Source of the DNA: Escherichia phage Ec_Makalu_001
Reading direction: 5' to 3' (one strand)
Length of the DNA stretch: 64,000 nt
Sequence record: MN894885.1
Shown: positions 27,049-57,909 of the stretch, piece by piece
Layout: each line of letters starts with the position of its first letter
How positions within the stretch are numbered: position 1 is the stretch's first letter
Translations under genes and position numbers: made by a program
The notes under the pieces: model-generated
Database searches by the model: none
What the model saw: only the letters and a program-made list of their open reading frames with translations
What the model was told of the DNA's origin: nothing

Positions 27049-27926
27049 TAAAAGTCTCCGTAGTTAACCTGAAAACATTCTACACCGATTGTGCGGTACA
27101 TGTCAACCACTTGGTCACGGTCATCCACTGCCAAAACAACATGATAACGTGGTGCAATTTCCGAGAAAAAGATCTCTTTCTTCACTTCATGATCTGGACG
27201 TCGATCATTAGTTTCACGCTGGAAGTGATCGCTAGGTTCAATACCCTGTTCACGCAACCATTGCAGCGTATCTTCTTCGCAAACATCCTCACGCCCTGAG
27301 CATGTAATGATACGATAACCATTATCACGATACAGTTTAAGCATTTCGATCACTTGCGGACGCGGTTTATCTTCTTTGACCTTTGTCCAGTCAAACGGAT
27401 GACGACCGCCCTTATCCGCTAATGTTCCATCAATATCAAAGATCACTGCCTTTGGCAGCATGGTATTCGGTTTGTATACTTCTTGACCCATATATTCCTG
27501 CATCAGATAAAATTGGTTACGCAAATGAGATAGCGGAATTGCTTTCTCGCCGCGATAGAAATTACGTTTCTTTAGTGTCTCAAACGGTTCATTGAACACT
27601 TGTTCAGTATACACCGCATTAAATTCTTTTGCAAGTTCTTTGTAGAATACACGATGTTTTTCTTTCAGGTTGGTATCAGAGATAATGATACTCAATCCGC
27701 GTGATAGAGTCTCGCGAGCAATCATTCTCTGAACAGACTCTACCAGCTTTTCCTTTTCCTTAGTATATTTGTATTTCAAAGGTGAGTCAACACCAAACAA
27801 CATAAGACGAAGATCATCACGATTCACATTACGATAATTACTAAACCGTTTACACGTTTCCATAGCCCATGTAGTTTTACCGGACCCAGAACAACCAACG
27901 GTTAAAATCACTTCACATTTCGGCAT
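27048..27926 (-). CDS. pseT: polynucleotide 5'-kinase / 3'-phosphatase
   Basis: 292 aa; strong similarity to T4 Pnk (P-loop GCSGSGKTTWA; phosphatase motif VIFDIDGTLA; C-terminus GVECFQV). Confidence 0.9.
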   Translation of the reverse strand: MPKCEVILTVGCSGSGKTTWAMETCKRFSNYRNVNRDDLRLMLFGVDSPLKYKYTKEKEKLVESVQRMIARETLSRGLSIIISDTNLKEKHRVFYKELAKEFNAVYTEQVFNEPFETLKKRNFYRGEKAIPLSHLRNQFYLMQEYMGQEVYKPNTMLPKAVIFDIDGTLADKGGRHPFDWTKVKEDKPRPQVIEMLKLYRDNGYRIITCSGREDVCEEDTLQWLREQGIEPSDHFQRETNDRRPDHEVKKEIFFSEIAPRYHVVLAVDDRDQVVDMYRTIGVECFQVNYGDF

Positions 27927-28378
27927 TATTTCTCCTTCGGTTTACACCGTTCCTCATTGAGTTCTTTGCGATAATAACACATGATCAACTTACTTTCAAG
28001 TGTATATCTCTTAATATCAGCCAACCAGACTCTAAATTTTTGGGAGTCCTCCCATGACATAGAAACTCTAGGCTTACCGTCTATTGTATCCACATTCAGG
28101 TCAATGTCAACTTTTTCTATTGGTGCTGGTAGTGGTGGATGTAATTTCGGTTCCTGTGAATAATGGTCCAGTGTACACGAAGAAAGAGCAAATACAATAG
28201 GCACAGCGAAGACATGGATTATGGCGGTCTGAAAATTCTTATGTGTTTTCTTAAATATCCAGTGTATCACGAAAATTGAAAACACCATCAGGATAATAAT
28301 GCTTGCACCTATCCACAGATAATCAACCAGATTAAAATTGCTTATCTGCTCTTGCGTAGGCAATATTTCTATGCTCAT
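27926..28378 (-). CDS. membrane protein (one N-terminal TM helix)
   Basis: 150 aa; hydrophobic segment LWIGASIIILMVFSIFVIHWIF. Confidence 0.45.
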   Translation of the reverse strand: MSIEILPTQEQISNFNLVDYLWIGASIIILMVFSIFVIHWIFKKTHKNFQTAIIHVFAVPIVFALSSCTLDHYSQEPKLHPPLPAPIEKVDIDLNVDTIDGKPRVSMSWEDSQKFRVWLADIKRYTLESKLIMCYYRKELNEERCKPKEK

Positions 28379-28698
28379 TTAGTAGCCTCCTTTAATTCTT
28401 CGGTAAACTCCTTAAATGAGTCATTAAGCTGTTTCTCTACCAACTTGGGTTTTTGTGCTACTACATAGCCTCGTGTAGCGTCTTTCATTGCTTTGTTTTG
28501 TTCTTCTGCAAACTTAGTTCTTATTCCGTACATATCCTTTTGTAGTGAGTCTACGACCTTCATCTTTTCATCTGTCTTTTTCTTATACTCTGTAAATTCC
28601 TGATTCAGTCGATCTACCTCCTTTTTATTTTCCCACCACATATTGCCACCTACCCCCAGCAACACAGATATGATAACAATGTATATCAGCTTTGACAT
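28375..28698 (-). CDS. membrane-anchored coiled-coil protein
   Basis: Start assigned to internal ATG 28696-28698 (MSKLIYIVIISVLLGVGG...). Confidence 0.4.
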   Translation of the reverse strand: MSKLIYIVIISVLLGVGGNMWWENKKEVDRLNQEFTEYKKKTDEKMKVVDSLQKDMYGIRTKFAEEQNKAMKDATRGYVVAQKPKLVEKQLNDSFKEFTEELKEATK

Positions 28699-44683: not shown

Positions 44684-44691
44684 TATAAATA
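44684..44691 (+). promoter_or_regulatory. T4-type late promoter motif TATAAATA upstream of gene 34
   Basis: Exact TATAAATA ~28 nt upstream of ATG at 44720. Confidence 0.55.
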
Positions 44692-44719: not shown

Positions 44720-47700
44720 ATGGCAGATTTTTCTCAACATTTCAAGGCCACATTTGGCTTTGACGCTGGTAATGAAAAGGTCGTCAATGTAGCATTGGCT
44801 GATAAGAATGTCAACACCGATGCGGTCAACGTTGAATTTTTCAATTACCATAATGGTATTACTCAGTATGACACAACTCGCGGTTATGATCAATACGGAA
44901 CTACAATCTATCAAAACCGTCCGTATTATGCAAAAGAAGATATCACAAAGCCAGCAGGTGATTTTGACCCGACTAAATGGCAAGCACTGCGCACGGACCC
45001 ACGTTGGGATTATATTGCAGCAACTTCCGGTGATACTCCTTTAAAGTCTGGTGATTATATCGCAGCAGATGGTCAATTTGCAAACTTGACTTTCTCTATG
45101 CCAACTAAACCAGCAGAGGGAGACACTATAACAGTAAAAGATATCGGTGGCAAGTGTGGTGTTAACGAATTATCGTTCTTGAGTTCAGGACATGAGTTTT
45201 ACCATAACGGTAATGTGTATAACCGAAAATGGTATTGCACTACCCCGTATGCAATGAACTATTTCATCTTTGTTCGTAATCGTTGGCATGTTTATCAGAC
45301 AGGAACAGAGCCACGCGGTGTGTACGCACAGCCAGCGATTGATGCTATTCAAATGCAGAATGGTGACCAGGTATTTCGTCGTAGTTCGTTGGGTAATATT
45401 ACCTTAGTGCTTCCTAAGTTTGCCAACAATGGCGACATGATCCAGACTACAGACCTTGACGGATTAACCGCAACCAACCACGTTACGGTTAAAGTTCATG
45501 AGCACGCAGAAGAACAATCAATTGGCACGTCCGGTCTAAAAGAGATTATCGGTAAGCGTAGCGGTCATGGTGTATTCATCTTTGACAAGACGGAAAACTT
45601 ATGGCGTTTGTGGGATGGTGATCAGTCTGTTCGTCTTAAACCGATCATCGATGACACTCGCTTGCAACCTAATAGCTATGTTGCTGTATTTGGTGATCGT
45701 GATGTTACTCTGACGCTGCCGACCAATGTCGAGCCGGGTGATCGTATTCAAGTTTCTATGCAGTATATGAACGGAAACCAGAATTGCCGTATTATCACCG
45801 CCACAGAGGATACAAAAATCCTTATGCAGAAAAACATGGTTCAGTTTCCTAAGCGTAGCGAGTACCCATTCAATGGGACCGATACATGGACGGGAGTATC
45901 TGAATTGTCTTTCAACGCTGCAAATGATTATGTACCTTATCTGGAGTTCTCTTATTCAGAAGGTGATGATGGTAAGAAATACTGGTTGGTGGCACATGCT
46001 CACCCGATTGTAGAACGAGTAGATCCGACTCGTAAAGATCGTGTTGGTGTAATTGCACTGGCTACCCAGACTGAAACGAATAAAAACCATGAAGAGAATC
46101 CTAGCGACGAAGTTGCGGTGACTCCAAAGGTTCTGGCTAATAAAACAGCCAACGAAACTAGACGCGGTATTGCTCGCATTGCGACTCAAGCGGAAACGCA
46201 TCAAGATACTGGTTCTATCTTCCTGGATGATGTTATCGTTACGCCTAAAAAGTTAAATGATTGTGTTGCTACCGAAGCCCGTCGTGGCGTGATGGAAATT
46301 GCAACCCAGCACGAAACAAATGAAGGTTTAGACGATACCCGCGCTATTACTCCTAAGAAATTAGAAGAACGTCGCGCTTCCGAAGATCTCGCTGGTATTG
46401 CTGAAATTGTTCAGGCTGGCGGTAGTGCTGCCGCTCGACGTGGCGAAGCTGGTACAGGGATCTATAACATCAACGACCATGTTAAAATTGTTACGCCACA
46501 AAACATCAACGAAGTCAAGGCGACCGAAACTTCCCGTGGTGTTGGCTATCTGGCAACTGACGCGGAAGTGCAAGGGGCTACAGAATCAACCCCGCAAGAT
46601 GCTTTACTAATCACGACTCGCACGCTAACGAAACGTACTGCTACCGAATCGCGCACTGGTATCGCTGAAATTGCAACTCAGGAAGAAACAAACTTAGGTC
46701 AAAGTGATAACCATATCATCACGCCTAAAAAGCTGCATACTCGCCGCGCAACGGAAACTTTACATGGTTTAGCAGAAATTGCAACTCAGCCGGAATTTGA
46801 CGCAGGTCTTGACGATGCTCGCATTTCTACCCCATTGAAGATTAAAACCTTCTTTGAGAATGCACAGCGTTTGAAAGTAGATCCGACTCAGGGGCTTAAC
46901 CTTACTGGTGATTTGTGGCAAGGTATCATGATTCGCGGTCTGGATGCAACAGAAGACACAAAAGGTGTCGCTAAAGTTGCTACTACTCAGCTTACTGACG
47001 CTGGTCAAGATGATACTACAATCATCACTCCTAAAAAGCTGCAAGGCAAAAAGGCCACCGAAGGTAAAGAAGGTATTATCCGAGTTGGTACTCAAGCCGA
47101 AACCGTGGCTGGTACACTGGCTAATGTAGCAATTTCTCCGAAGAACTTCAAATATGTTGTTCAGACAGAGGATACATGGAAAGCAACCGAAGCTCGTCGT
47201 GGTTTCTTGAAAGTTGCTACTCAGGAAAACTGTTTTGTTGGTGACAATCTGCAAGGTTCTACTCAAGAACTAGGAAACTACCAGCATGACGGAATTGCTG
47301 TTACTCCGAAAGGATTAAACTACGCACTTGCTAATTTCTTGCCTAAGATGGCAACCGCTCAGAATAGTTTGAAATTGGGTAACGTAGAGGCCGCTAAATG
47401 GGCGCGTAGAGACATTGACCAGACCATAGAGAGCAATTACACGTTTAATAAAAACGTTAACGTGAAGGGCGATTTAGAGTGCTTAAAATCAGGTTCCTTT
47501 GAAACTCTGTATGTGACTAAGAACTCTACTGATGATCCGAGTAATGGTCATCTGGTGTTGGGTGAGCGTGGAGTTGACGGTCACACCGGAATTACTCTGC
47601 ATGGCACAACCGCATCGGAAGGCATGAAAAACTCCTGGTCTATTATCGTTGGTGGTACTGGAACGGCGCAAGCAGTTAATAGTGGCGCTATCGCTTTCGG

Positions 47701-48460
47701 TCAAATCAATGATGGTGGAGTCGTCGAGCATTACGCCTTTGCTATGGAACACAATGGCGACGCGACAGCATATAGAGACTTTATTGCAGGTCGTAACCTG
47801 TATGCGAAACAAGGCGGTTTATACATTGTTGACCAGTCTAATCCGGCAATGACTCGTTCCCCAGATGGTATGCTGAATATCGGTCACGGTGGAAGTGTTA
47901 ACATCAAGGCAGGTTCTCAAACGTTAACTACAGAGATCGCCGGACAGAAATATCAGATCGTACACGCAGGAAACGCCGACGAAGTTCTTAACCGTCGGTT
48001 TGTTAAGAATGCTGGCGATACAATGGTCGGTAAGCTGACTATGGATAATGCGCCTATTGTTTCTGTTAAACATGAAGCTAGCGCGGCAACCGCTCCGGCA
48101 ATTGGTAACATCGGTTTCTGGAATATGCGAGTTACTACCCAGAACATCAAAGAAACTTATCCAGAGAAGAAAAACGGTACTCTGATGCAATGGGGTACTG
48201 ACGCGGACGGGCTTACCCAGCTTTGGTCCCCTGATGGTACTCATAAACATTATATCCGTTCCGGTACTGGTGGTCAATGGACCGCATGGGGTGAAATTTA
48301 CACCAAACAGAATAAGCCTACCGCTCAGGAAATCGGGGCGGTAGTTGCAGAAGGTGGTTTAATGAACTCTATGACGGTTCGTGATTGGATTAAAGTTGGT
48401 AATGTTAAAATCATCGCCAATAATCTGACTCGTACCGTAGACTTTATCTGGGAAGACTAA
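44720..48460 (+). CDS. 34: long tail fibre proximal subunit gp34
   Basis: 1246 aa; MADFSQHFKATFGFDAGNEK N-terminus; repeated TPKKL..ATE..GIAEIATQ.E motifs; TATAAATA late promoter at 44684-44691. Confidence 0.8.
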   Translation: MADFSQHFKATFGFDAGNEKVVNVALADKNVNTDAVNVEFFNYHNGITQYDTTRGYDQYGTTIYQNRPYYAKEDITKPAGDFDPTKWQALRTDPRWDYIAATSGDTPLKSGDYIAADGQFANLTFSMPTKPAEGDTITVKDIGGKCGVNELSFLSSGHEFYHNGNVYNRKWYCTTPYAMNYFIFVRNRWHVYQTGTEPRGVYAQPAIDAIQMQNGDQVFRRSSLGNITLVLPKFANNGDMIQTTDLDGLTATNHVTVKVHEHAEEQSIGTSGLKEIIGKRSGHGVFIFDKTENLWRLWDGDQSVRLKPIIDDTRLQPNSYVAVFGDRDVTLTLPTNVEPGDRIQVSMQYMNGNQNCRIITATEDTKILMQKNMVQFPKRSEYPFNGTDTWTGVSELSFNAANDYVPYLEFSYSEGDDGKKYWLVAHAHPIVERVDPTRKDRVGVIALATQTETNKNHEENPSDEVAVTPKVLANKTANETRRGIARIATQAETHQDTGSIFLDDVIVTPKKLNDCVATEARRGVMEIATQHETNEGLDDTRAITPKKLEERRASEDLAGIAEIVQAGGSAAARRGEAGTGIYNINDHVKIVTPQNINEVKATETSRGVGYLATDAEVQGATESTPQDALLITTRTLTKRTATESRTGIAEIATQEETNLGQSDNHIITPKKLHTRRATETLHGLAEIATQPEFDAGLDDARISTPLKIKTFFENAQRLKVDPTQGLNLTGDLWQGIMIRGLDATEDTKGVAKVATTQLTDAGQDDTTIITPKKLQGKKATEGKEGIIRVGTQAETVAGTLANVAISPKNFKYVVQTEDTWKATEARRGFLKVATQENCFVGDNLQGSTQELGNYQHDGIAVTPKGLNYALANFLPKMATAQNSLKLGNVEAAKWARRDIDQTIESNYTFNKNVNVKGDLECLKSGSFETLYVTKNSTDDPSNGHLVLGERGVDGHTGITLHGTTASEGMKNSWSIIVGGTGTAQAVNSGAIAFGQINDGGVVEHYAFAMEHNGDATAYRDFIAGRNLYAKQGGLYIVDQSNPAMTRSPDGMLNIGHGGSVNIKAGSQTLTTEIAGQKYQIVHAGNADEVLNRRFVKNAGDTMVGKLTMDNAPIVSVKHEASAATAPAIGNIGFWNMRVTTQNIKETYPEKKNGTLMQWGTDADGLTQLWSPDGTHKHYIRSGTGGQWTAWGEIYTKQNKPTAQEIGAVVAEGGLMNSMTVRDWIKVGNVKIIANNLTRTVDFIWED

Positions 48461-48493: not shown

Positions 48494-49633
48494 ATGACAC
48501 AAGAGATAGAATTACGCAACACTGGAATTAGGTTTGCGCATTTCGATGAGGACTCCGCGACATTTACCAGCATTTCAGAAAACAACTCTGTGATGTATAA
48601 GCTGGAAGTGCGCGGATCTAATGCGGATTCTACCAAACCAGCAAGGATTAGATTTAATGGAGTGGAGATCGTTGGTACTGGCTATGAAAATGGCCTAAAT
48701 TTTAAAGTTCTTACTCCAACTGGACAACTACACGAAGAAAAGGTATTCTATGGTCGCGGTGCTGTTTTGGCAATGCGTGATTATCTTTCTTTGCTGAAAG
48801 GTGACTATATCATTGCGATGGCAACGCATGGAGAATTGTTTGCAGATCCGGTAAGTGATGTTGTATTTTCTAAGCTGGGATCTGTATCATTCCCGAATCA
48901 CATTTTGTTACAGCAAATGCCTCGTGTATCCTATGCAGCAATTTATTCTACGAAAATGGGTAAAATTGTGTGCGAAGGTATGCAAGCGACCCACGGGGAA
49001 GGACAAGATTCATCTATACAAATTGAGAAAGTCTATGATACTATAGATGATCTTGCTATAACAGGAACACCACAACGATTTTTAGATTATCCGGTTGAGT
49101 ATGTTAGCGAAGATGCCGAACATTTCGAGCTAATACAATGGCCTCACGATGAGATCAGCGCCCCACTTGAGGATTTTAACATAAAGGCAGGTGACAAACT
49201 ATCAATATCCTTTGAATTGTTCCGTGATAGTGCCGCAGCCGCAGCCAACGTAACAGCGCGTTTCTATCACAACTACTTCACCGATGGACAATATAAAACT
49301 GGTGTTCGATACAATGCCAGCAAAAAAGATCAATGGGAAAAGTTTGAAGCCGTCTATACCGTACCGGAAGGAGTTGATAGTGTAGTAACTGGTTGTATCA
49401 GATATCCAACCAACTCAAATGAAGGTATTGTTAAAATTAGAAACATACTAATAACGCCGATCAGTGGAGTCGTCAAAACTACTGGTCCTACTTCATTTGG
49501 TGTTAATGGTGTTAGAACAACTCATATTCAGGATAACGGTGATTTTACTAACCCTGTAATGAGTCTTCTTAAGCTGCCTAGAGACAATAAACATATCACA
49601 TCCAACAACTTTAAAGAGTTCGATGTTGATTAA
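48494..49633 (+). CDS. 35: long tail fibre hinge connector gp35
   Basis: 379 aa; position between 34 and 36. Confidence 0.6.
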   Translation: MTQEIELRNTGIRFAHFDEDSATFTSISENNSVMYKLEVRGSNADSTKPARIRFNGVEIVGTGYENGLNFKVLTPTGQLHEEKVFYGRGAVLAMRDYLSLLKGDYIIAMATHGELFADPVSDVVFSKLGSVSFPNHILLQQMPRVSYAAIYSTKMGKIVCEGMQATHGEGQDSSIQIEKVYDTIDDLAITGTPQRFLDYPVEYVSEDAEHFELIQWPHDEISAPLEDFNIKAGDKLSISFELFRDSAAAAANVTARFYHNYFTDGQYKTGVRYNASKKDQWEKFEAVYTVPEGVDSVVTGCIRYPTNSNEGIVKIRNILITPISGVVKTTGPTSFGVNGVRTTHIQDNGDFTNPVMSLLKLPRDNKHITSNNFKEFDVD

Positions 49634-49794: not shown

Positions 49795-49802
49795 TATAAA
49801 TA
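49795..49802 (+). promoter_or_regulatory. T4-type late promoter motif TATAAATA upstream of gene 36
   Basis: Exact TATAAATA ~33 nt upstream of ATG at 49836. Confidence 0.55.
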
Positions 49803-49835: not shown

Positions 49836-51326
49836 ATGGCAGATTTGAAATATGGATCTACTGTAGGTGGATCTCCCATTTGGACGCAAGGAAACTTGAC
49901 GATCCAGCCAGCGGGGGATCAGCTTTTCTACAAAGGTCATAAAATCTATACCGCTTTTGATAGACCTTCGGCTACCGATTTTGATGCTGTTAGTGCATCC
50001 GAAGGTGGCACATTTCAAAAGCAAGTTCATTTCGAGGAAGGTTTAAGCGTAGGTAGCGCATCGGCTGGAGAAACCAAAAAGAATGGTATCTTTAAAGGTC
50101 AGAGTGACGCTGCTAATTTTGACGGTGTAAGCTGGGGTTTGCATTCATGGAAGTCAATCGGCTTTGTTAATGCCCGTGATGGCGTTATCATGGCTTATAT
50201 TGACACCACAACGGGCGAATTTAAGTCTAAAGGGACTATCGAAGGGACAACCATTAAAGACACAGGTCAACGCGTCTATAGCCCTGTTAATAAACCAACG
50301 AATAATGATTTAGATTTGGTGTCTCGTCGCGGTGATACCCTCACAGGAACATATAATTTAAACACTGTCACTGTTAAACTATCGGTTGATTCGAAATTAA
50401 TTGCAAGGGAACGTGATTTAATTAATTTTGATGCGACTAAGATCTATTATGGTAACGTTCTTGATACGTTGGTATTCCGAAGTAAAGATGAGCCTACCAT
50501 TTTTGTTAATGGCAAAGAAGGTCGTTTTTATCACACCAACAATAAACCAACTAAAGCCGATGTGGGACTAGGCAATGTCACCAATGATGCACAGGTTAAA
50601 CGTGCTGGTGATATTATGGAAGGTAACTTGCAAGCGCCTAGAATGTTGGCGACAAACGATCCTGCTGGTCCGAATGAATTGGTTCGTTTGAGCTACTTTG
50701 AGAGAAAATCAATGGTAGCAAATCCAACCATCATAGGAAACGTTGATTGGAACACTCTTATTAATCGCGGTATCTATCGTGTGGAAAATGCGGGATCAGG
50801 TACTAATAAACCGTCTGATAGCTATTATAACGGCGTTTTGATGGTATACCGACCAGAAGATGCGGTCGGTACTCGTCGAATTGTTCAGGTGTATTATCCT
50901 GAATCTATTGACCATCCGATGTGCTGGCGTTCTTGTTCTAATGAATCGTGGACTGCATGGAACTATGTGGATCACCGTAAATTAGCCGATATTCGCTATG
51001 TTAACGTAACTGGAGATACCATGACAGGGCCGTTAACTGTTCCGGCTGCAAATGGCGTTAGAACGGCTAGAGGTGCATATAATGGTGATAACTACTATGC
51101 TGGGTTAAATAGTGCCGATGGCACGGCTATGATTCACCGTATCAGCGATATTAAAGCCACCGAAAAATTGGGGATCACCCACGACTCAAAGGTCGTGTTT
51201 TTCCGTTCTAGAAACAATACTCAAACCGTGGATCGCTATCAGCTTTATCATGAAGGTAATAAACCTACTCCGGCTGATGTTGGTGCGGTTCCACTTAATG
51301 CGGTGATTGATTTTGGTACTTTCTAA
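49836..51326 (+). CDS. 36: long tail fibre distal connector gp36 (enlarged)
   Basis: 496 aa; N-terminus MADLKYGSTVGGSPIWTQGN resembles T4 gp36 MADLKVGSTTGGSVIWHQGN; TATAAATA late promoter at 49795-49802. Confidence 0.7.
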   Translation: MADLKYGSTVGGSPIWTQGNLTIQPAGDQLFYKGHKIYTAFDRPSATDFDAVSASEGGTFQKQVHFEEGLSVGSASAGETKKNGIFKGQSDAANFDGVSWGLHSWKSIGFVNARDGVIMAYIDTTTGEFKSKGTIEGTTIKDTGQRVYSPVNKPTNNDLDLVSRRGDTLTGTYNLNTVTVKLSVDSKLIARERDLINFDATKIYYGNVLDTLVFRSKDEPTIFVNGKEGRFYHTNNKPTKADVGLGNVTNDAQVKRAGDIMEGNLQAPRMLATNDPAGPNELVRLSYFERKSMVANPTIIGNVDWNTLINRGIYRVENAGSGTNKPSDSYYNGVLMVYRPEDAVGTRRIVQVYYPESIDHPMCWRSCSNESWTAWNYVDHRKLADIRYVNVTGDTMTGPLTVPAANGVRTARGAYNGDNYYAGLNSADGTAMIHRISDIKATEKLGITHDSKVVFFRSRNNTQTVDRYQLYHEGNKPTPADVGAVPLNAVIDFGTF

Positions 51327-51396: not shown

Positions 51397-54339
51397 ATGG
51401 CAGATTTAAGCAGAATCCAATTTAAACGTACTAGCACTAAAGGCCGTCGACCTGATGCTGGTACGATGAATCCGGGGGAATTGGCAATCAACCTTGCGGA
51501 TCAATATCTTCTTACTAAAAATGATTCCGGCGCTATTATCAATTTAAGTTGTCCTCCGGTTTATGACCGTGATGTTACAATGGCGGGTAAGGTTAAAGGA
51601 AATAATTATATTTTAAGTAAAACCGCCAATTATCTGGAAGACCAGACAGCGAGAGATCTTAACTACTTTGGTGCTTTCCGTACCAATAGTCTAGATGGAC
51701 TCATGGATCTAACCCTTAACGTTCCTCACTCTTCCGGTAAAGCGCATGGTCGAGGATTTACTTTCCGTTATGGGACTGGCGGATCTCGTGTTGAAACCTA
51801 TGGTTTTGATGTTCAGGGACAAAAAGCATTTAGTTATAAAATGTATCATGAAGGGGATAAACCGACTCCCTCAGAATTGAACGTTTATAGCAAACAAGAA
51901 GTTGACCGTATGTTTGTTAAAACCGTTAAACTTGCTACAGTTCCTGTTGATATCGTTGACGGTTATTTTAAATTAGCAACTGCATTGATTCCGCAAAACG
52001 GTCGTAGTGTATTTTTCCGTATTCATGGTGGTAACGGATATAACGTTACTGCATACGATCAAGTTGATATTGTAGAAATTGTTATTCGCAGTGGAAATAA
52101 TCGTCCTAAAGGTGTTAACGTTATTGCATACCGCCGAAATACAAACAAAGCATTTGATGTTTTGGCTGTTAATACTTCTGGTGATAACTATGATATCTAC
52201 GTGAAATATCAGCGTTACACTGATAACGTTATTGTTGAATTTGGTAAAAGTGTTGATGTTGATCTGGTGGTTCATGACGTTCCAGACTTTGTTGTTGATC
52301 GTCCTGTTGGTGATAATGTTATTGGCGGTCGCGCGGTAACTCTTTTTAACACCGAAAACAAACGAGGTGTGTTGAGTTTTGACGATAACACACAAAATAG
52401 TTATGATATTGTTCACTTGAGTAATGATAAAGGTACTGGAAGGAAATATATTCGTAAATTCCGTAGTAACTATAATGAAATGATCTGGCATGAGACGGTT
52501 CAAGGTTCCAGTTATCGACTCGCCACGGGTAGTACAGATGCTCAGGAAATTATAACTATTGAATCTAGTAGCTCAATTGCTGGAACTCATAAAGGTAATA
52601 TTATTTCTGGTCGTATGCTGTTAAATGGCGGATCTAATGCCATTACACTACGCCGACCTGCTGGTCAGTCTAATCATATCGCTTTTCAGGATAACCGCAC
52701 CGGAGATATTACTCGTCAAGGATGGATCGGTTATGCAAACGCTGATACTAACGTTTTTGAATGGTATAGTGATGTAGGCGGTAGTTCTATTCGTCAACAT
52801 ATTGACGGCCAGATAGAACTTCAAACTGGCAATATGAAGCGAGTTTATACTAACGCTCAATTCATCTCAATGAATAGCGACGCCTACCGTATGCTCTATG
52901 GTAATTATGGTGCATTCTGGCGTAATGACGGCGTTAAAGTTTATCTTCTTTCTACTGCCGAAAATGATAAATTGGGCGGATGGAATACTTATCGTCCATT
53001 CATTTATGATTTAACTTCCGGTAACGTTCAATTAGGTGGTGATGGTAACGAAGATGCATTAACTTTAGAATGTGCTTCTCGTGCCGCTCGCTTTAGTAAT
53101 GACGTTTACATTAAGAAAGGGCTTTTGACTTTCGACGCTGGGCGCGCTGGGTCTCGCGATTATATTCGATTTAATCATTGGGGTGATAGCAATAATGCTC
53201 GTGATAACGTTTTGTACATAGAAGATAGTCAAGGCCGACATTTTAGCACAGAACGTGCGATGGGTACTGGTGCTCTTAAAGCATACTTCTTAGGCGATCT
53301 TGAAGTCGGTGGTAAGTTTACTTGGGGTAAAAATACAGCTACATCTAGCTTTAATATTCGTGCATGGGGTAGTGATTCTCGTAAGCAAGTATTAGAATGC
53401 GCGGATGAAAGTGGTTGGCATTGGTATACCCAGCGACCGGGCGGTCCGGGTACTTCGGCAATTGAGTTTGCCATCAACGGTACTGTTAAGCCTCAAGCAA
53501 TTCATACTGGCGGCAATATTCTTTTGAACGGTGCCGATATTGAATTTCGTCGCACCGGTAATAAGCATTTGTGGTTTAGAGATCCAGACGGTTTAGAGTT
53601 AGGCTTGATGTACTGCGATGATGCTGGTGCTATTCGCTTCCGTGGTCAGAAACAAGCCCAGACGTGGAAATTTGCAGATAAAATGATCCAGTTGGAATCT
53701 GGTACTGTATCTGGTGGCGGTAATGGCCTGATTCGTGGTGAAGTTGCTGGCGGTAGTTGGGCTAGCTGGCGTGACCGTCCTGCTGGTCTTATGGTTGGGT
53801 GTCCTCAATCCGTTGACTCGGCACATAACGTATGGAAAGCGACGCATTGGGGTAAATATCATATCGCAGCAATGGGTGTACATGTTCCTAGTGGTACTAT
53901 TACCAATGCTTTAGCTCGCCTAAACGTTCATGACGCCAACTTTGACTTTAGCGCCTCCGGTGACCTGTCGGTAGGTCGTAATGGTTCGTTTAACGATGTT
54001 TATATTCGTTCTGATGCTCGCCTTAAAATCAACAAAGAAGAGTATAAAGAGAATGCCACCGATAAAGTTAATCGCTTGACGGTATACACCTATGACAAGG
54101 TTAAATCTTTAACCGACCGTACTGTCATTGCTCATGAAGTTGGTATTATTGCTCAGGAACTTGAAAAAGAATTGCCGGAAGCAGTAACAACTTCTAAGGT
54201 CGGCGATCCTGATAAGCCAGAAGAGATCTTAACAATTTCTAACTCTGCTGTCAACGCTCTTTTAATTAAGGCGTTTCAGGAAATGAGCGAAGAATTGAAA
54301 GCCGTTAAAGCTGAACTAGCGGAACTTAAAAAGAATTAA
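51397..54339 (+). CDS. 37: long tail fibre distal subunit gp37 with C-terminal intramolecular chaperone-like domain
   Basis: 980 aa; position after 36; C-terminal ~120 aa (SDARLKINKEEY...VGIIAQELEKELPEAV...coiled-coil) resembles the self-cleaving chaperone domain of endosialidase/T5 pb1-type fibres. Confidence 0.7.
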   Translation: MADLSRIQFKRTSTKGRRPDAGTMNPGELAINLADQYLLTKNDSGAIINLSCPPVYDRDVTMAGKVKGNNYILSKTANYLEDQTARDLNYFGAFRTNSLDGLMDLTLNVPHSSGKAHGRGFTFRYGTGGSRVETYGFDVQGQKAFSYKMYHEGDKPTPSELNVYSKQEVDRMFVKTVKLATVPVDIVDGYFKLATALIPQNGRSVFFRIHGGNGYNVTAYDQVDIVEIVIRSGNNRPKGVNVIAYRRNTNKAFDVLAVNTSGDNYDIYVKYQRYTDNVIVEFGKSVDVDLVVHDVPDFVVDRPVGDNVIGGRAVTLFNTENKRGVLSFDDNTQNSYDIVHLSNDKGTGRKYIRKFRSNYNEMIWHETVQGSSYRLATGSTDAQEIITIESSSSIAGTHKGNIISGRMLLNGGSNAITLRRPAGQSNHIAFQDNRTGDITRQGWIGYANADTNVFEWYSDVGGSSIRQHIDGQIELQTGNMKRVYTNAQFISMNSDAYRMLYGNYGAFWRNDGVKVYLLSTAENDKLGGWNTYRPFIYDLTSGNVQLGGDGNEDALTLECASRAARFSNDVYIKKGLLTFDAGRAGSRDYIRFNHWGDSNNARDNVLYIEDSQGRHFSTERAMGTGALKAYFLGDLEVGGKFTWGKNTATSSFNIRAWGSDSRKQVLECADESGWHWYTQRPGGPGTSAIEFAINGTVKPQAIHTGGNILLNGADIEFRRTGNKHLWFRDPDGLELGLMYCDDAGAIRFRGQKQAQTWKFADKMIQLESGTVSGGGNGLIRGEVAGGSWASWRDRPAGLMVGCPQSVDSAHNVWKATHWGKYHIAAMGVHVPSGTITNALARLNVHDANFDFSASGDLSVGRNGSFNDVYIRSDARLKINKEEYKENATDKVNRLTVYTYDKVKSLTDRTVIAHEVGIIAQELEKELPEAVTTSKVGDPDKPEEILTISNSAVNALLIKAFQEMSEELKAVKAELAELKKN

Positions 54340-54379
54340 GGAAACTCCCAGGGAAGGGAACTACTAAGGAGAAACGGCT

Positions 54380-54619
54380 ATGGTCTATAATATCGTCATT
54401 GGTGCTTTGTCTAATTTCGGAATGAAATTATTGTCAAAGTTAATTAGTGAAAAGATGCTCACTAAAATTTTCTTCTATTGCGCTCGTCGTCTTGCGGCTT
54501 ATACCAATACGCCAATTGATGATCGTTTTGTGGAAGAACTTTATAAGGAGTTTAATAAAGATCAGTCGGAAGATAGTAACGAGCAAGATAAACCTAGTGA
54601 TAGTCAACTACCTAAATAA
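54380..54619 (+). CDS. hypothetical protein (79 aa), hydrophobic N-terminus
   Basis: ORF between 37 and t; no similarity to gp38 recognised. Confidence 0.35.
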   Translation: MVYNIVIGALSNFGMKLLSKLISEKMLTKIFFYCARRLAAYTNTPIDDRFVEELYKEFNKDQSEDSNEQDKPSDSQLPK

Positions 54620-54652: not shown

Positions 54653-55309
54653 ATGCAAGTTTCTGAAAAAGGGAAAGACTTTGCTATCTCAAATGTCCTG
54701 CGCGCTATTTTCACAACTAAAAGCACGGAGTTGCTCGTACTTCGTGTTTTTGCTGCCGTCGTGTTGTCCATATTAGCATTTGTCGTTTATAGTAAAAACG
54801 AGTTATTCGCGCTTTATAAAGAGACTCGTTATGAGACTTATGCTCACATTCTCCAGGTAGAGAAAGACCGCAATTTTGATAATGCAGCACAGGAGCAGTT
54901 ACAGATAGTTCATGTATCGGCTGATGCCGATTTTTCTGCTGTTTTTAGTTTTCGTCCGAAAAACCTAAACTATTTTGTTGATTTGGTGGCATATGAAGGA
55001 AAGCTACCGCATACAATCGATGAAAAAAATTTAGGCGGATTCCCTATCAATAAAACGAGTGAAGAATATCGTAGGCATCTTTTAGGTAAATCCTATTTTA
55101 CCGATAAAGATTTCCAGTATATTCCATCGAGGGAGAAAAAATTAGAGAATATTGATATAGGGTTTATGTATTCTTGTCCTATATTCAATCTCGATAATGT
55201 CTATTCTGGTAGTATTGCCATTTCATGGAAGAATAAACCAGATATTGATATCGAGAATTTAGATACTCTTTGTAATCAATCTGCCAGAATCCTCGGAAGG
55301 ATTAGATAA
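54653..55309 (+). CDS. t: holin (T-type)
   Basis: 218 aa, same length as T4 T; strong similarity (ETRYETYAHIL, QIVHVSADADFSAVFSFRPKNLNYFVDLVAYEGKLP, CNQSARILGR). Confidence 0.85.
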   Translation: MQVSEKGKDFAISNVLRAIFTTKSTELLVLRVFAAVVLSILAFVVYSKNELFALYKETRYETYAHILQVEKDRNFDNAAQEQLQIVHVSADADFSAVFSFRPKNLNYFVDLVAYEGKLPHTIDEKNLGGFPINKTSEEYRRHLLGKSYFTDKDFQYIPSREKKLENIDIGFMYSCPIFNLDNVYSGSIAISWKNKPDIDIENLDTLCNQSARILGRIR

Positions 55310-55313
55310 CTTA

Positions 55314-55347
55314 AAGGGGAAGCCTTTCGGCCTCCCCTTCTTTTTTA
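55314..55347. terminator. terminator hairpin after holin t (possibly bidirectional)
   Basis: GGGGAAGCC-TTTC-GGCCTCCCC followed by T-run; convergent genes on both sides. Confidence 0.55.
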
Positions 55348-55593
55348 TTGGCGCATAGAATCCCCTGAATCACATTTTGACGCTGTATGATGAAAACAGG
55401 TAGCGTACCAGTCATCGGCTTGTTTGTCTTCGTCAGAAAACGCGTAATTTCGTTGTATGCCGTTTTCTACTTTGACCAGTGCAATAGCTGTTTCTGGAAG
55501 ATCGATCAATCGGACAAAATCACCATCTTCCCACTCTACACGAGCAATATCATAGCCCATCTCAAAGTATACAATCGCTTGTTCTAGTTTCAT
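55345..55593 (-). CDS. hypothetical protein (82 aa)
   Basis: ORF. Confidence 0.35.
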   Translation of the reverse strand: MKLEQAIVYFEMGYDIARVEWEDGDFVRLIDLPETAIALVKVENGIQRNYAFSDEDKQADDWYATCFHHTASKCDSGDSMRQ

Positions 55594-57150: not shown

Positions 57151-57909
57151 TTACTTGCAAACGTATTGATCTACATCAATTGCGCCACCGAATGTAGGAT
57201 GACGTTTTTCAAATCGAATCGTTCCGTCGTTTGGTTCGAAAACGGAGTATTCATATAGATCTTTCTTGCCAACATTCTTATAAAACCCGCCTTTAGTCAT
57301 AACGGTTTCTTGTACGTTTGCTTTGTGTACATTGTATTCATCAATGTACACAAAATCAACCATCTTCCCATTTTTAATAGTTACTTTAAGATCCCCTGGC
57401 TGGTTTCCATATTTTGCATACAGTGGAGATTCTTTAATTTTGGTGGAAATTCCATCTTTCATACTCCACTCATAACGAACGGTGCATTGATAGGTAAAAG
57501 TTTCGACCTTCGGTTCTTCCACCACTTTTTCTTCCTGTTTCGGTTGTTCTTCTTCAATCTTCGCAGAAGTCTCTGAATCGCTTTCTGACGCGGTTTCTTC
57601 TTTAGGTAATACATTCATTAAGTTTTGGATTTGAGCGTTATATACAGCCTCCAGTGGCTGAATCTGCCCGATATTGATCATTGTATCACGAACAGTTTTA
57701 TTCCAGTTGCGTTGCTCTTGTTTCAGAGACGGATCAATCTTAACAGCCTTAACATATACTTCATGAAGTTTAGAATCAAGTGCGGAGATTGACTCGTTAG
57801 CACAAATAAACTTCTCTGATTTGGTAGTAGCCTTAGTGCAATCAAAGGACGCAGCATTAGCACCGATGGCAGTAGCAGAAAGAAAGATAGCAGCGATAAT
57901 GTTTTTCAT
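57151..57909 (-). CDS. secreted protein with N-terminal DUF1311 / LprI-like (lysozyme-inhibitor-like) domain
   Basis: 252 aa; signal peptide MKNIIAAIFLSATAIGANA; pattern C..A....E.FIC....L..LD..L..VY ... EQRNW; promoter-like motif upstream. Confidence 0.45.
   Translation of the reverse strand: MKNIIAAIFLSATAIGANAASFDCTKATTKSEKFICANESISALDSKLHEVYVKAVKIDPSLKQEQRNWNKTVRDTMINIGQIQPLEAVYNAQIQNLMNVLPKEETASESDSETSAKIEEEQPKQEEKVVEEPKVETFTYQCTVRYEWSMKDGISTKIKESPLYAKYGNQPGDLKVTIKNGKMVDFVYIDEYNVHKANVQETVMTKGGFYKNVGKKDLYEYSVFEPNDGTIRFEKRHPTFGGAIDVDQYVCK

Follow-up and report, generated by a model that had tools for sequence, protein, structure and literature searches.

The distal long-tail-fibre and lysis region of Krischvirus phage Ec_Makalu_001: a gp37 precursor with an intramolecular-chaperone domain, a gp38 gene inferred at a distant locus and a P18-like gene before holin t

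In Escherichia phage Ec_Makalu_001 (MN894885.1) the gene for the distal subunit of the long tail fibre, g37, is followed by a 79-aa open reading frame (ORF) and then by t, with no g38 beside it. How, then, is the fibre tip matured, where does receptor specificity reside, and what does the small ORF encode? We analysed a stretch of 64 kb of the genome, hereafter the window, to which all coordinates refer. Our data suggest that this RB49-type locus very probably encodes a self-cleaving gp37 precursor, that the gp38 adhesin is encoded far off, and that the 79-aa ORF is a lysis accessory gene of the P18 type.

The window belongs to a Krischvirus (RB49-like) and was matched by 60 Krischvirus-type records in a megablast search. 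The best of the matches listed, Ec_Makalu_003, has 96.5% nucleotide identity across g37-t, and none of those listed is identical to this region. The locus is the standard, already described distal long-tail-fibre and lysis end of the Krischvirus genome, and all main points on the RB49-type fibre locus have been published already. Its features are as follows.

49795-49802, + strand: T4-type late promoter motif TATAAATA, upstream of g36 (pattern search)
51397-54339, + strand: gene 37, long tail fibre distal subunit precursor, 980 aa, 108.5 kDa (phrog_1699, E=5e-196)
52711-53007, + strand: Gp34_trimer-like trimerisation domain in the gp37 shaft, aa 439-537 (PF21446, E=2.3e-23)
53737-54009, + strand: tip module of mature gp37, aa 781-871, ending in the strand NDVYIR871 (homology to SYGD1 gp37; DVYIR^SD motif)
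54010-54336, + strand: C-terminal intramolecular chaperone (IMC) / Peptidase_S74 domain, aa 872-980, 109 aa, 12.2 kDa (PF13884)
54010-54012, + strand: codon of Ser872, predicted nucleophile (invariant in alignment A1; analogy of the cleavage site, PMC7917993)
54025-54027, + strand: codon of Lys877, predicted general base (invariant in alignment A1)
54380-54619, + strand: 79-aa ORF with an AAGGAG ribosome-binding site upstream (phrog_402, E=5e-20)
54653-55309, + strand: gene t, T4-type holin (Pfam Phage_holin_T, E=4.5e-61; phrog_860)

A late transcript covering g36, g37, the 79-aa ORF and t is likely to start at the TATAAATA motif. This assignment is based on position and T4 precedent because the number of copies of the motif in the window is not above chance. 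The only other nearby late-promoter copy on the + strand is at 44684, before g34, and the pattern search found none between g36 and t, that is, before g37, the 79-aa ORF or t. Scans for generic promoters and terminators in this region gave no excess over the shuffled expectation.

gp37 ends in a genuine S74 intramolecular-chaperone domain that has the catalytic Ser-Lys dyad. The first-pass annotation had described such a domain by the strings SDARLKINKEEY, NRLTVYTYDK and VGIIAQELEKELPEAV, all of which are present in the translation of ORF 51397-54339; the domain stands, and its length is corrected from the approximately 120 aa claimed to the 109 aa between Ser872 and the C-terminus. Specifically, the Pfam profile Peptidase_S74 (PF13884) matches aa 872-931 with E=1.3e-11 (45.1 bits, with a cut-off of 22), and the dyad Ser872/Lys877 lies where the domain begins, within the motif DVYIR^SDARLK (the caret marks the predicted cut) with a Ser-Lys spacing of five residues. 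Lys877 is presumably the general base of the dyad, as we take from the endosialidase and T5 pb1 literature. Moreover, S872, D873 and K877 are invariant in an alignment of 23 homologous sequences (A1), and NDVYIR^SDARLK is kept in all seven Krischvirus gp37 proteins compared. The AlphaFold monomer model of the domain has pLDDT values of 86-93 and agrees with the family fold, a small beta-rich core and then a long C-terminal helix (here aa 949-979), which in this family makes a trimeric coiled coil. Its best Foldseek matches are the MyRF ICA (7DC3, E=5.6e-5), the GA-1 neck appendage (3GUD, E=0.03) and the CIMCD of endosialidase K1F (3GW6, E=0.06). Of the checks suggested earlier, the profile match to Peptidase_S74 was obtained with Pfam. 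These three proteins and T5 pb1 are like gp37 in belonging to the Peptidase_S74 family, in the Ser-Lys motif and the fold, and in the C-terminal position of the domain behind a trimeric beta-structure. They differ in that their mature end is itself the functional tip or enzyme, whereas the mature end of gp37 is predicted to be an adhesin platform.

By analogy, the IMC is predicted to be auto-cleaved between Arg871 and Ser872 and to be missing from virions, and NDVYIR871 would be both the new C-terminus and the gp38 docking surface of mature gp37. In Salmonella phage S16, gp37 is cut at DLNVS^SDRRIKK, which exposes the docking surface for gp38, and a DVYIR^SD variant has been described (PMC7917993); this variant is the same as in the gp37 studied here, the sequence upstream of the cleavage site being DVYIR instead of DLNVS. 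S16 and T2-type phages likewise have a C-terminal IMC with SDxRxK, and their tip, once bared by cleavage, binds the N-terminal domain of gp38; the S74 domain of the present gp37 aligns with the S16 gp37 tip construct (6F45_A), SDxRxK included. No mass-spectrometric record of Krischvirus gp37 cleavage was found in the literature searched. T4 gp37 resembles the present protein in genome position, in its N-terminal ~70 aa (46% identical) and in the late promoter before g36, but it has neither the S74 domain nor the SDxRxK motif.

A gp37 that carries a gp38 adhesin, as in S16 and the T2 type, characteristically has an S74 domain (PMC9569957; PMC7917993), and the presence of one on this gp37 therefore speaks for the use of gp38 and not against it. 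The tip module together with the IMC is 62.5% identical to that of gp37 of Tequatrovirus SYGD1 (49% over aa 574-974), in which gp37 is followed directly by gp38 and then by t, and the N-terminal domain of SYGD1 gp38 is 50% identical to that of RB49 gp38. Siphoviruses without gp38 have the same tip and IMC module at the end of their side fibres; over its full length it is 39-42% identical to the ends of fibres in T5-like Salmonella phages and in Drexlerviridae, where gp38 is not nearby. Because of this, the DVYIR tip alone is no proof of gp38 docking. The DVYIR strand was at first weighed as evidence specific to gp38 and then dropped, since it is also present in homologues that include fibres of gp38-less phages.

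Within the genus, RB49, Phi1, JSE and GEC-3S have the order g36-g37-orf-t and the NDVYIR^SDARLK motif in common with Ec_Makalu_001, and their IMC is 98-100% identical over aa 881-980. The gp37 shaft of RB49 and JSE is another mosaic, with an identity of 32-52% in aa 361-480, and that of GEC-3S is 12-45% identical in aa 561-760.

The earlier reading that no recognisable gp38 is present holds inside the window and fails for the genus. With tblastn against the whole 64-kb window, neither RB49 gp38 (T2 type; best E=8) nor T4 gp38 (best E=0.49) gave a match, and nothing homologous to T4 gp38, a non-structural chaperone unrelated to the T2-type adhesin family, was found in RB49 between 1 and 100 kb. 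RB49 encodes its gp38 as RB49p079 (45367-46143 of RB49; Pfam GP38, E=7e-72, plus Gp38_N), and a T2-type gp38 is found at this distant locus in 29/29 relatives checked, including Makalu_003 (29 of the closest 30 were surveyed). The Makalu_003 protein is 83% identical to RB49 gp38, with nearly identical N-terminal domains, and the N-terminal domain GW(V/I)GSSA..ETGQRWMS is common to Krischvirus and T2-type gp38. In S16 and T2, g38 lies directly downstream of g37, whereas in Krischvirus it is ~104 kb from g37 (~58 kb in the opposite direction on the permuted genome), at ~45-47 kb in the records of RB49, Phi1, JSE and GEC-3S. The expected position is ~53 kb before the start of the window, and the presence of g38 in Ec_Makalu_001 itself is extrapolated from these relatives. 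The literature on displaced gp38 in RB49-like phages agrees with the genome comparison. No late-promoter motif was found upstream of the displaced g38 in RB49 or Makalu_003.

Where receptor specificity resides follows a similar line. The first-pass annotation had placed it in gp37 itself, and this is contradicted by the RB49 host-range mutations, which map to gp38 (E230K) (PMC9569957), by receptor screens of five Krischvirus phages that assigned specificity to gp38, and by the gp38 genes of the relatives. Its further suggestion of chaperone-independent fibre folding is unsupported, a gp57A-type general fibre chaperone being annotated in RB49. A phage without gp38, in which fibre folding depends on nothing but the S74 domain and the receptor is bound by the mature tip (aa 781-871) as in T5 L-shaped fibres, would agree with the lack of either gp38 type in the window and with the similarity of the tip and IMC to the siphovirus fibre ends. 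We nevertheless judge it extremely improbable: the window is ~39% of the genome with the g38 region outside it, a syntenic distant gp38 is present in every relative checked, the closest of which is 96.5% identical in g37, and both the RB49 mutants and the five-phage screens point to gp38. That virions instead keep the S74 domain on an uncleaved gp37, as a foldon-like or trimerisation cap, with no new tip exposed, appears highly improbable. A monomer model such as the one used here cannot show catalysis; against the cap are the Ser, Asp and Lys of SDxRxK, which do not vary in 23/23 homologues and 7/7 Krischvirus proteins, the cut at the aligned position of the related S16 gp37 (PMC7917993), and the need of gp38 for an exposed tip.

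As had been noted from the sequence, the 79-aa ORF is the sole ORF between g37 and t (ORF list) and is not gp38: it has no traits of T2-type gp38 (PF05268), that is, no Pfam GP38 match and no glycine runs, besides the negative tblastn searches. Our comparison identifies its product as a homologue of the lysis protein P18 (gp l; PF26925) of corticovirus PM2, an assignment that goes through its relatives: homologues at 61-92% identity carry a precomputed PF26925 (Phage_PM2_Gpl) match, and a family profile matched PM2 gp l in hhalign (87%, E=4e-6), a remote similarity (20% identity in 41 columns). The 79-aa ORF itself, when scanned against Pfam and NCBIfam, gave nothing usable and no PF26925 match. 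RB49 and Felix O1 were listed among phages with P18 homologues in 2007 (PMC1950889). Like P18, an outer-membrane-disrupting lysis factor, the product is small with a moderately hydrophobic N-terminal helix (hydropathy 1.3-2.1, borderline for a membrane span) and its gene adjoins a holin-like gene; unlike P18, it has 79 aa rather than 51 and an acidic tail. The AlphaFold model of the product has three helices, with a pLDDT of 60 that is too low to base a fold search on. Since the window encodes an Rz-like spanin pair as well, an outer-membrane role of the 79-aa ORF would be additional. To our knowledge the P18-like gene is unstudied in tailed phages, though the family was described in 2007. The gene is conserved across several hundred genomes of phages.

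The gene neighbourhood suggests that the 79-aa ORF probably serves lysis as an accessory gene alongside holin t and is not part of the fibre. Homologues adjoin holins or endolysins in three phage lineages. Family members lie directly upstream of holin T in this phage, in contig L013 and in L014; in the Ounavirinae the family is upstream of the annotated holin in Mordin, and phiEa21-4 has the same family (phrog_4038). The alternative of a new fibre-specific chaperone or mini-adhesin in place of gp38 has in its favour that the ORF fills the g38 slot, that Trojet et al. discussed such a role as possible for small ORFs following g37 of other T4-like phages, and that in Ounavirinae, Lahexavirus and Grimontviridae the family comes after a needle- or fibre-like gene, in the latter two within a virion module with no lysis-cassette link. 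Such a role is nonetheless quite unlikely. The related metagenomic contig L013 has the order gp37-IMC, GP38, P18-like ORF, holin T, so that the ORF coexists with gp38 and lies between it and t, and in L014 the P18-like ORF precedes holin T behind a fibre without an S74 domain. In Vibrio phages the family follows an endolysin with no fibre gene nearby, and the ORF is 97-100% identical among the Krischvirus phages RB49, Phi1, JSE and GEC-3S, with their differing gp37 and gp38; membership of the PM2 P18/gp l lysis family also speaks against a fibre chaperone.

Returning to the self-cleaving precursor with a distant adhesin, we propose that gp37 would be made as a 980-aa protein whose S74 domain (aa 872-980) first nucleates the trimer at the fibre tip and then removes itself by a Ser872/Lys877-catalysed cut at the Arg871-Ser872 bond. 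The exposed DVYIR tip would be capped by one copy of a T2-type gp38, encoded outside the window at the distance given above, whose hypervariable loops would recognise OmpA, Tsx or certain O-antigens as receptor. In the place that g38 once held, the 79-aa ORF would provide a lysis accessory protein of the PM2 P18/gp l type that travels with the holin gene.

Finally, the tip-proximal module of gp37 (~aa 721-871) is swapped among Krischvirus phages independently of gp38 and is homologous to the receptor-binding ends of the gp38-less siphovirus side fibres. We regard it as unlikely that this module carries a glycan-binding site of its own. If it did, the RB49-type fibre would bind receptors through two elements, O-antigen through gp37 and porins through gp38, which would account for the puzzling multi-O-antigen recognition reported for RB49-like phages. 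More generally, a g38 missing beside g37 in T4-like phages does not mean that the adhesin is absent, and where gp37 has an S74 domain, the fibre can be expected to be capped by gp38 and not to be self-sufficient. For host-range prediction or engineering of this phage, the target is gp38 at the distant locus.

Two ORFs occupy the interval 51397-54619, gp37 and an ORF of 79 aa, and these are followed by the holin gene t. The names gp34, gp35, gp36 and holin t were confirmed using PHROGs and Pfam, and the features of the locus are:

44684, T4-type late-promoter motif TATAAATA ahead of g34
44720-48460, gp34, upstream of g37
48494-49633, gp35, upstream of g37
49795, T4-type late-promoter motif TATAAATA ahead of g36
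49836-51326 (+), gp36, upstream of g37
51397-54339 (+), gp37 ORF, 980 aa
54380-54619 (+), 79-aa ORF with an AAGGAG ribosome-binding site ahead of the start
54653-55309, holin t, downstream of the 79-aa ORF

Since a motif search detected TATAAATA ahead of g36 but not ahead of g37, the 79-aa ORF or t, these four genes probably constitute a single late transcript. Of phage records, 60 matched the g37-t stretch, and essentially all of them are RB49-like (genus Krischvirus). Ec_Makalu_003 was the best match (96.5%), and by alignment with it the window covers approximately the final 64 kb in the standard genome record. Among the neighbouring genes, gp36 (496 aa) is more than twice as long as T4 gp36 (666-nt gene, ~221 aa) and its Phage_T4_gp36 match is sub-threshold (21.4 bits vs a cut-off of 26). 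Directly past t and on the opposite strand, an 82-aa ORF (55345-55593, -) matched Pfam Tad2-like (Thoeris anti-defence 2; 27.9 bits vs a cut-off of 25), and its syntenic counterpart in the metagenomic T4-like contig L013 gave the same weak match. A 252-aa protein (57151-57909, -) has a hydrophobic N-terminus resembling a signal peptide and scored 26.5 bits (vs a cut-off of 22) for the LprI (lysozyme inhibitor) domain; this phage protein is possibly secreted or periplasmic.

The first-pass annotation had flagged a chaperone-like (S74) end on gp37, the 79-aa ORF as the sole ORF before t, and no gp38 at this site, and all of this was confirmed. Peptidase_S74 was predicted at aa 872-931 (Pfam, E=1.3e-11; 45 bits, above the cut-off of 22), and the last 180 aa can be aligned, across the SDxRxK motif, to 6F45_A, the tip construct of S16 gp37. 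In an AlphaFold model of aa 781-980 the pLDDT is 86-93 across the S74 domain, with a terminal helix at aa 949-979, and the top PDB matches were 7DC3, the ICA domain of MyRF (E=5.6e-5), and two chaperone domains from phages, 3GUD and 3GW6. Ser872, Asp873 and Lys877 are invariant in an alignment of 23 sequences of database homologues; the predicted scissile bond is Arg871-Ser872 within NDVYIR^SDARLK, and cleavage there would give a mature protein of 96.3 kDa and a released domain of 109 aa and 12.2 kDa (computed). The intramolecular chaperone (IMC) on gp37, the displaced g38, the small ORF in its place and the P18 homology have all been published previously.

The 79-aa ORF has homologues in 391 phage records and is 97-100% conserved among the full-length Krischvirus matches listed. 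Database homologues 61-92% identical to it carry PF26925 (Phage_PM2_Gpl), its family profile matches PM2 gp l (hhalign probability 87%, E=4e-6), and a 2007 study (PMC1950889) had already described P18 homologues from both RB49 and Felix O1. Gene context is mostly in agreement with a lysis role: this P18-like ORF lies directly ahead of holin T in the window and in two metagenomic T4-like contigs, ahead of an annotated holin in Mordin, before a member of that same family in phiEa21-4, and after the endolysin in Vibrio phages. Counting against this, the family resides in the virion (head-tail) module in Grimontviridae and Lahexavirus, behind a needle- or fibre-like gene, a placement that does not fit a purely lysis-linked role; at L004 3501-3683, L005 2992-3192 and L008 2992-3183 the gene follows a tail-needle-knob or tail-protein gene and precedes a virion structural protein gene. 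Because an Rz-like spanin pair is likewise present in the window, any outer-membrane role of the P18-like gene would be auxiliary:

27926-28698 (-), Rz-like spanin pair adjoining pseT, phrog_739 (107 aa) and phrog_812 (match covering aa 53-150 in an ORF of 150 aa that has an internal ALSSC resembling a lipobox)

L013 carries gp37-IMC, then GP38, then the P18-like ORF and finally holin T; with both genes present, the P18-like ORF is, judging from gene content, not the replacement of gp38. The metagenomic T4-like contigs L014 and L015 have the order gp36, distal fibre, P18-like ORF and holin T, where the 524-aa fibre (L014 1722-4286, L015 1702-4266) has a Gp10_C domain and there is neither S74 nor gp38; this slot thereby shows a fibre end of a third type.

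Using tblastn, neither a T2-type gp38 (RB49 gp38 as query; best E=8) nor a T4-type gp38 (best E=0.49) was found in the 64-kb window. The earlier reading of no recognisable gp38 holds for the window, but a gp38 homologue is encoded at a syntenic site near rI and tk in all 29 relatives checked, namely the 30 closest except Aragogtheria (including Makalu_003, ECD7, Phi1, JSE, GEC-3S, Sf20, E26, Delraymugoa and W115). In RB49 the protein is RB49p079 (45367-46143), which is 258 aa long and carries Pfam GP38 (E=7e-72), Gp38_N and the typical glycine-rich motifs. The distance between g38 and g37 in the relatives is ~104 kb along the record and ~58 kb the other way round, i.e. beyond the window, and gp38 has been placed ~55 kb from gp37 in five Krischvirus phages (bioRxiv 10.64898/2026.04.02.716166). 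Just upstream of the g38 ribosome-binding site in RB49 (L001 46144-46200, -) and Makalu_003 (L012 2440-2500) GCCCCTTAATTGGGGC forms a hairpin with a T-run directly behind it; no TATAAATA late promoter was seen by it in either phage, and the element may represent a promoter/stem-loop shuffling cassette of the type known from T4-like phages. PaulHMueller (MZ501098.1), a 170-kb phage outside the Krischvirus match set, without a match to the g37-t stretch of the window, encodes a gp38 (64167-64925) sharing 90.5% identity with RB49 gp38, which indicates that T-even lineages have recently exchanged the adhesin.

Comparison of gp37 per 40-aa block with six Krischvirus copies (L020-L025) revealed a strong mosaic. 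Within the genus, conservation is highest in the IMC (98-100%) and NDVYIR^SDxRLK is retained in every copy compared, while identity drops to as low as 8-50% in shaft segments and the Cognac tip-proximal module (Cognac aa 721-840, 8-25%; GEC-3S aa 561-760, 12-45%; RB49, JSE and Delraymugoa aa 361-480, 32-52%). The gp38 of Cognac is still 94% identical to RB49 gp38, and the tip-plus-IMC module is over its full length 39-42% identical to side-fibre ends of T5-like phages and Drexlerviridae that have no gp38 nearby. These comparisons leave a small probability of a separate binding activity in the gp37 module, the sole non-trivial reading besides the main one to keep any probability.

The first-pass annotation had suggested chaperone-independent folding and receptor specificity in gp37 itself. 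Neither is implied by an S74 domain: RB49p127 is annotated as a gp57A-like "tail fiber chaperone", and RB49 host-range mutants are located in gp38 (E230K), such that published genetics within the same genus contradict this functional suggestion, which is not supported. The gp38 proteins of RB49 and Makalu_003 differ mainly between the glycine-rich motifs, and the N-terminal attachment motif GW(V/I)GSSA..ETGQRWMS is common to all gp38s compared. In S16, cleavage at DLNVS^SDRRIKK takes off 113 residues and uncovers the gp38 docking surface, and the aligned motif of fPS phages, DVYIR^SD (PMC7917993), is identical to that of the gp37 studied here. In Tequatrovirus SYGD1, gp37 (49% identical over aa 574-974, tip and IMC included) is directly followed by gp38 and then t, and this gp38 shares 50% identity with its RB49 counterpart in the N-terminal domain. 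In the light of the cleavage motif, the SYGD1 gene pair and the RB49 mutants, the S74 domain speaks for a gp38-capped fibre, not against one.
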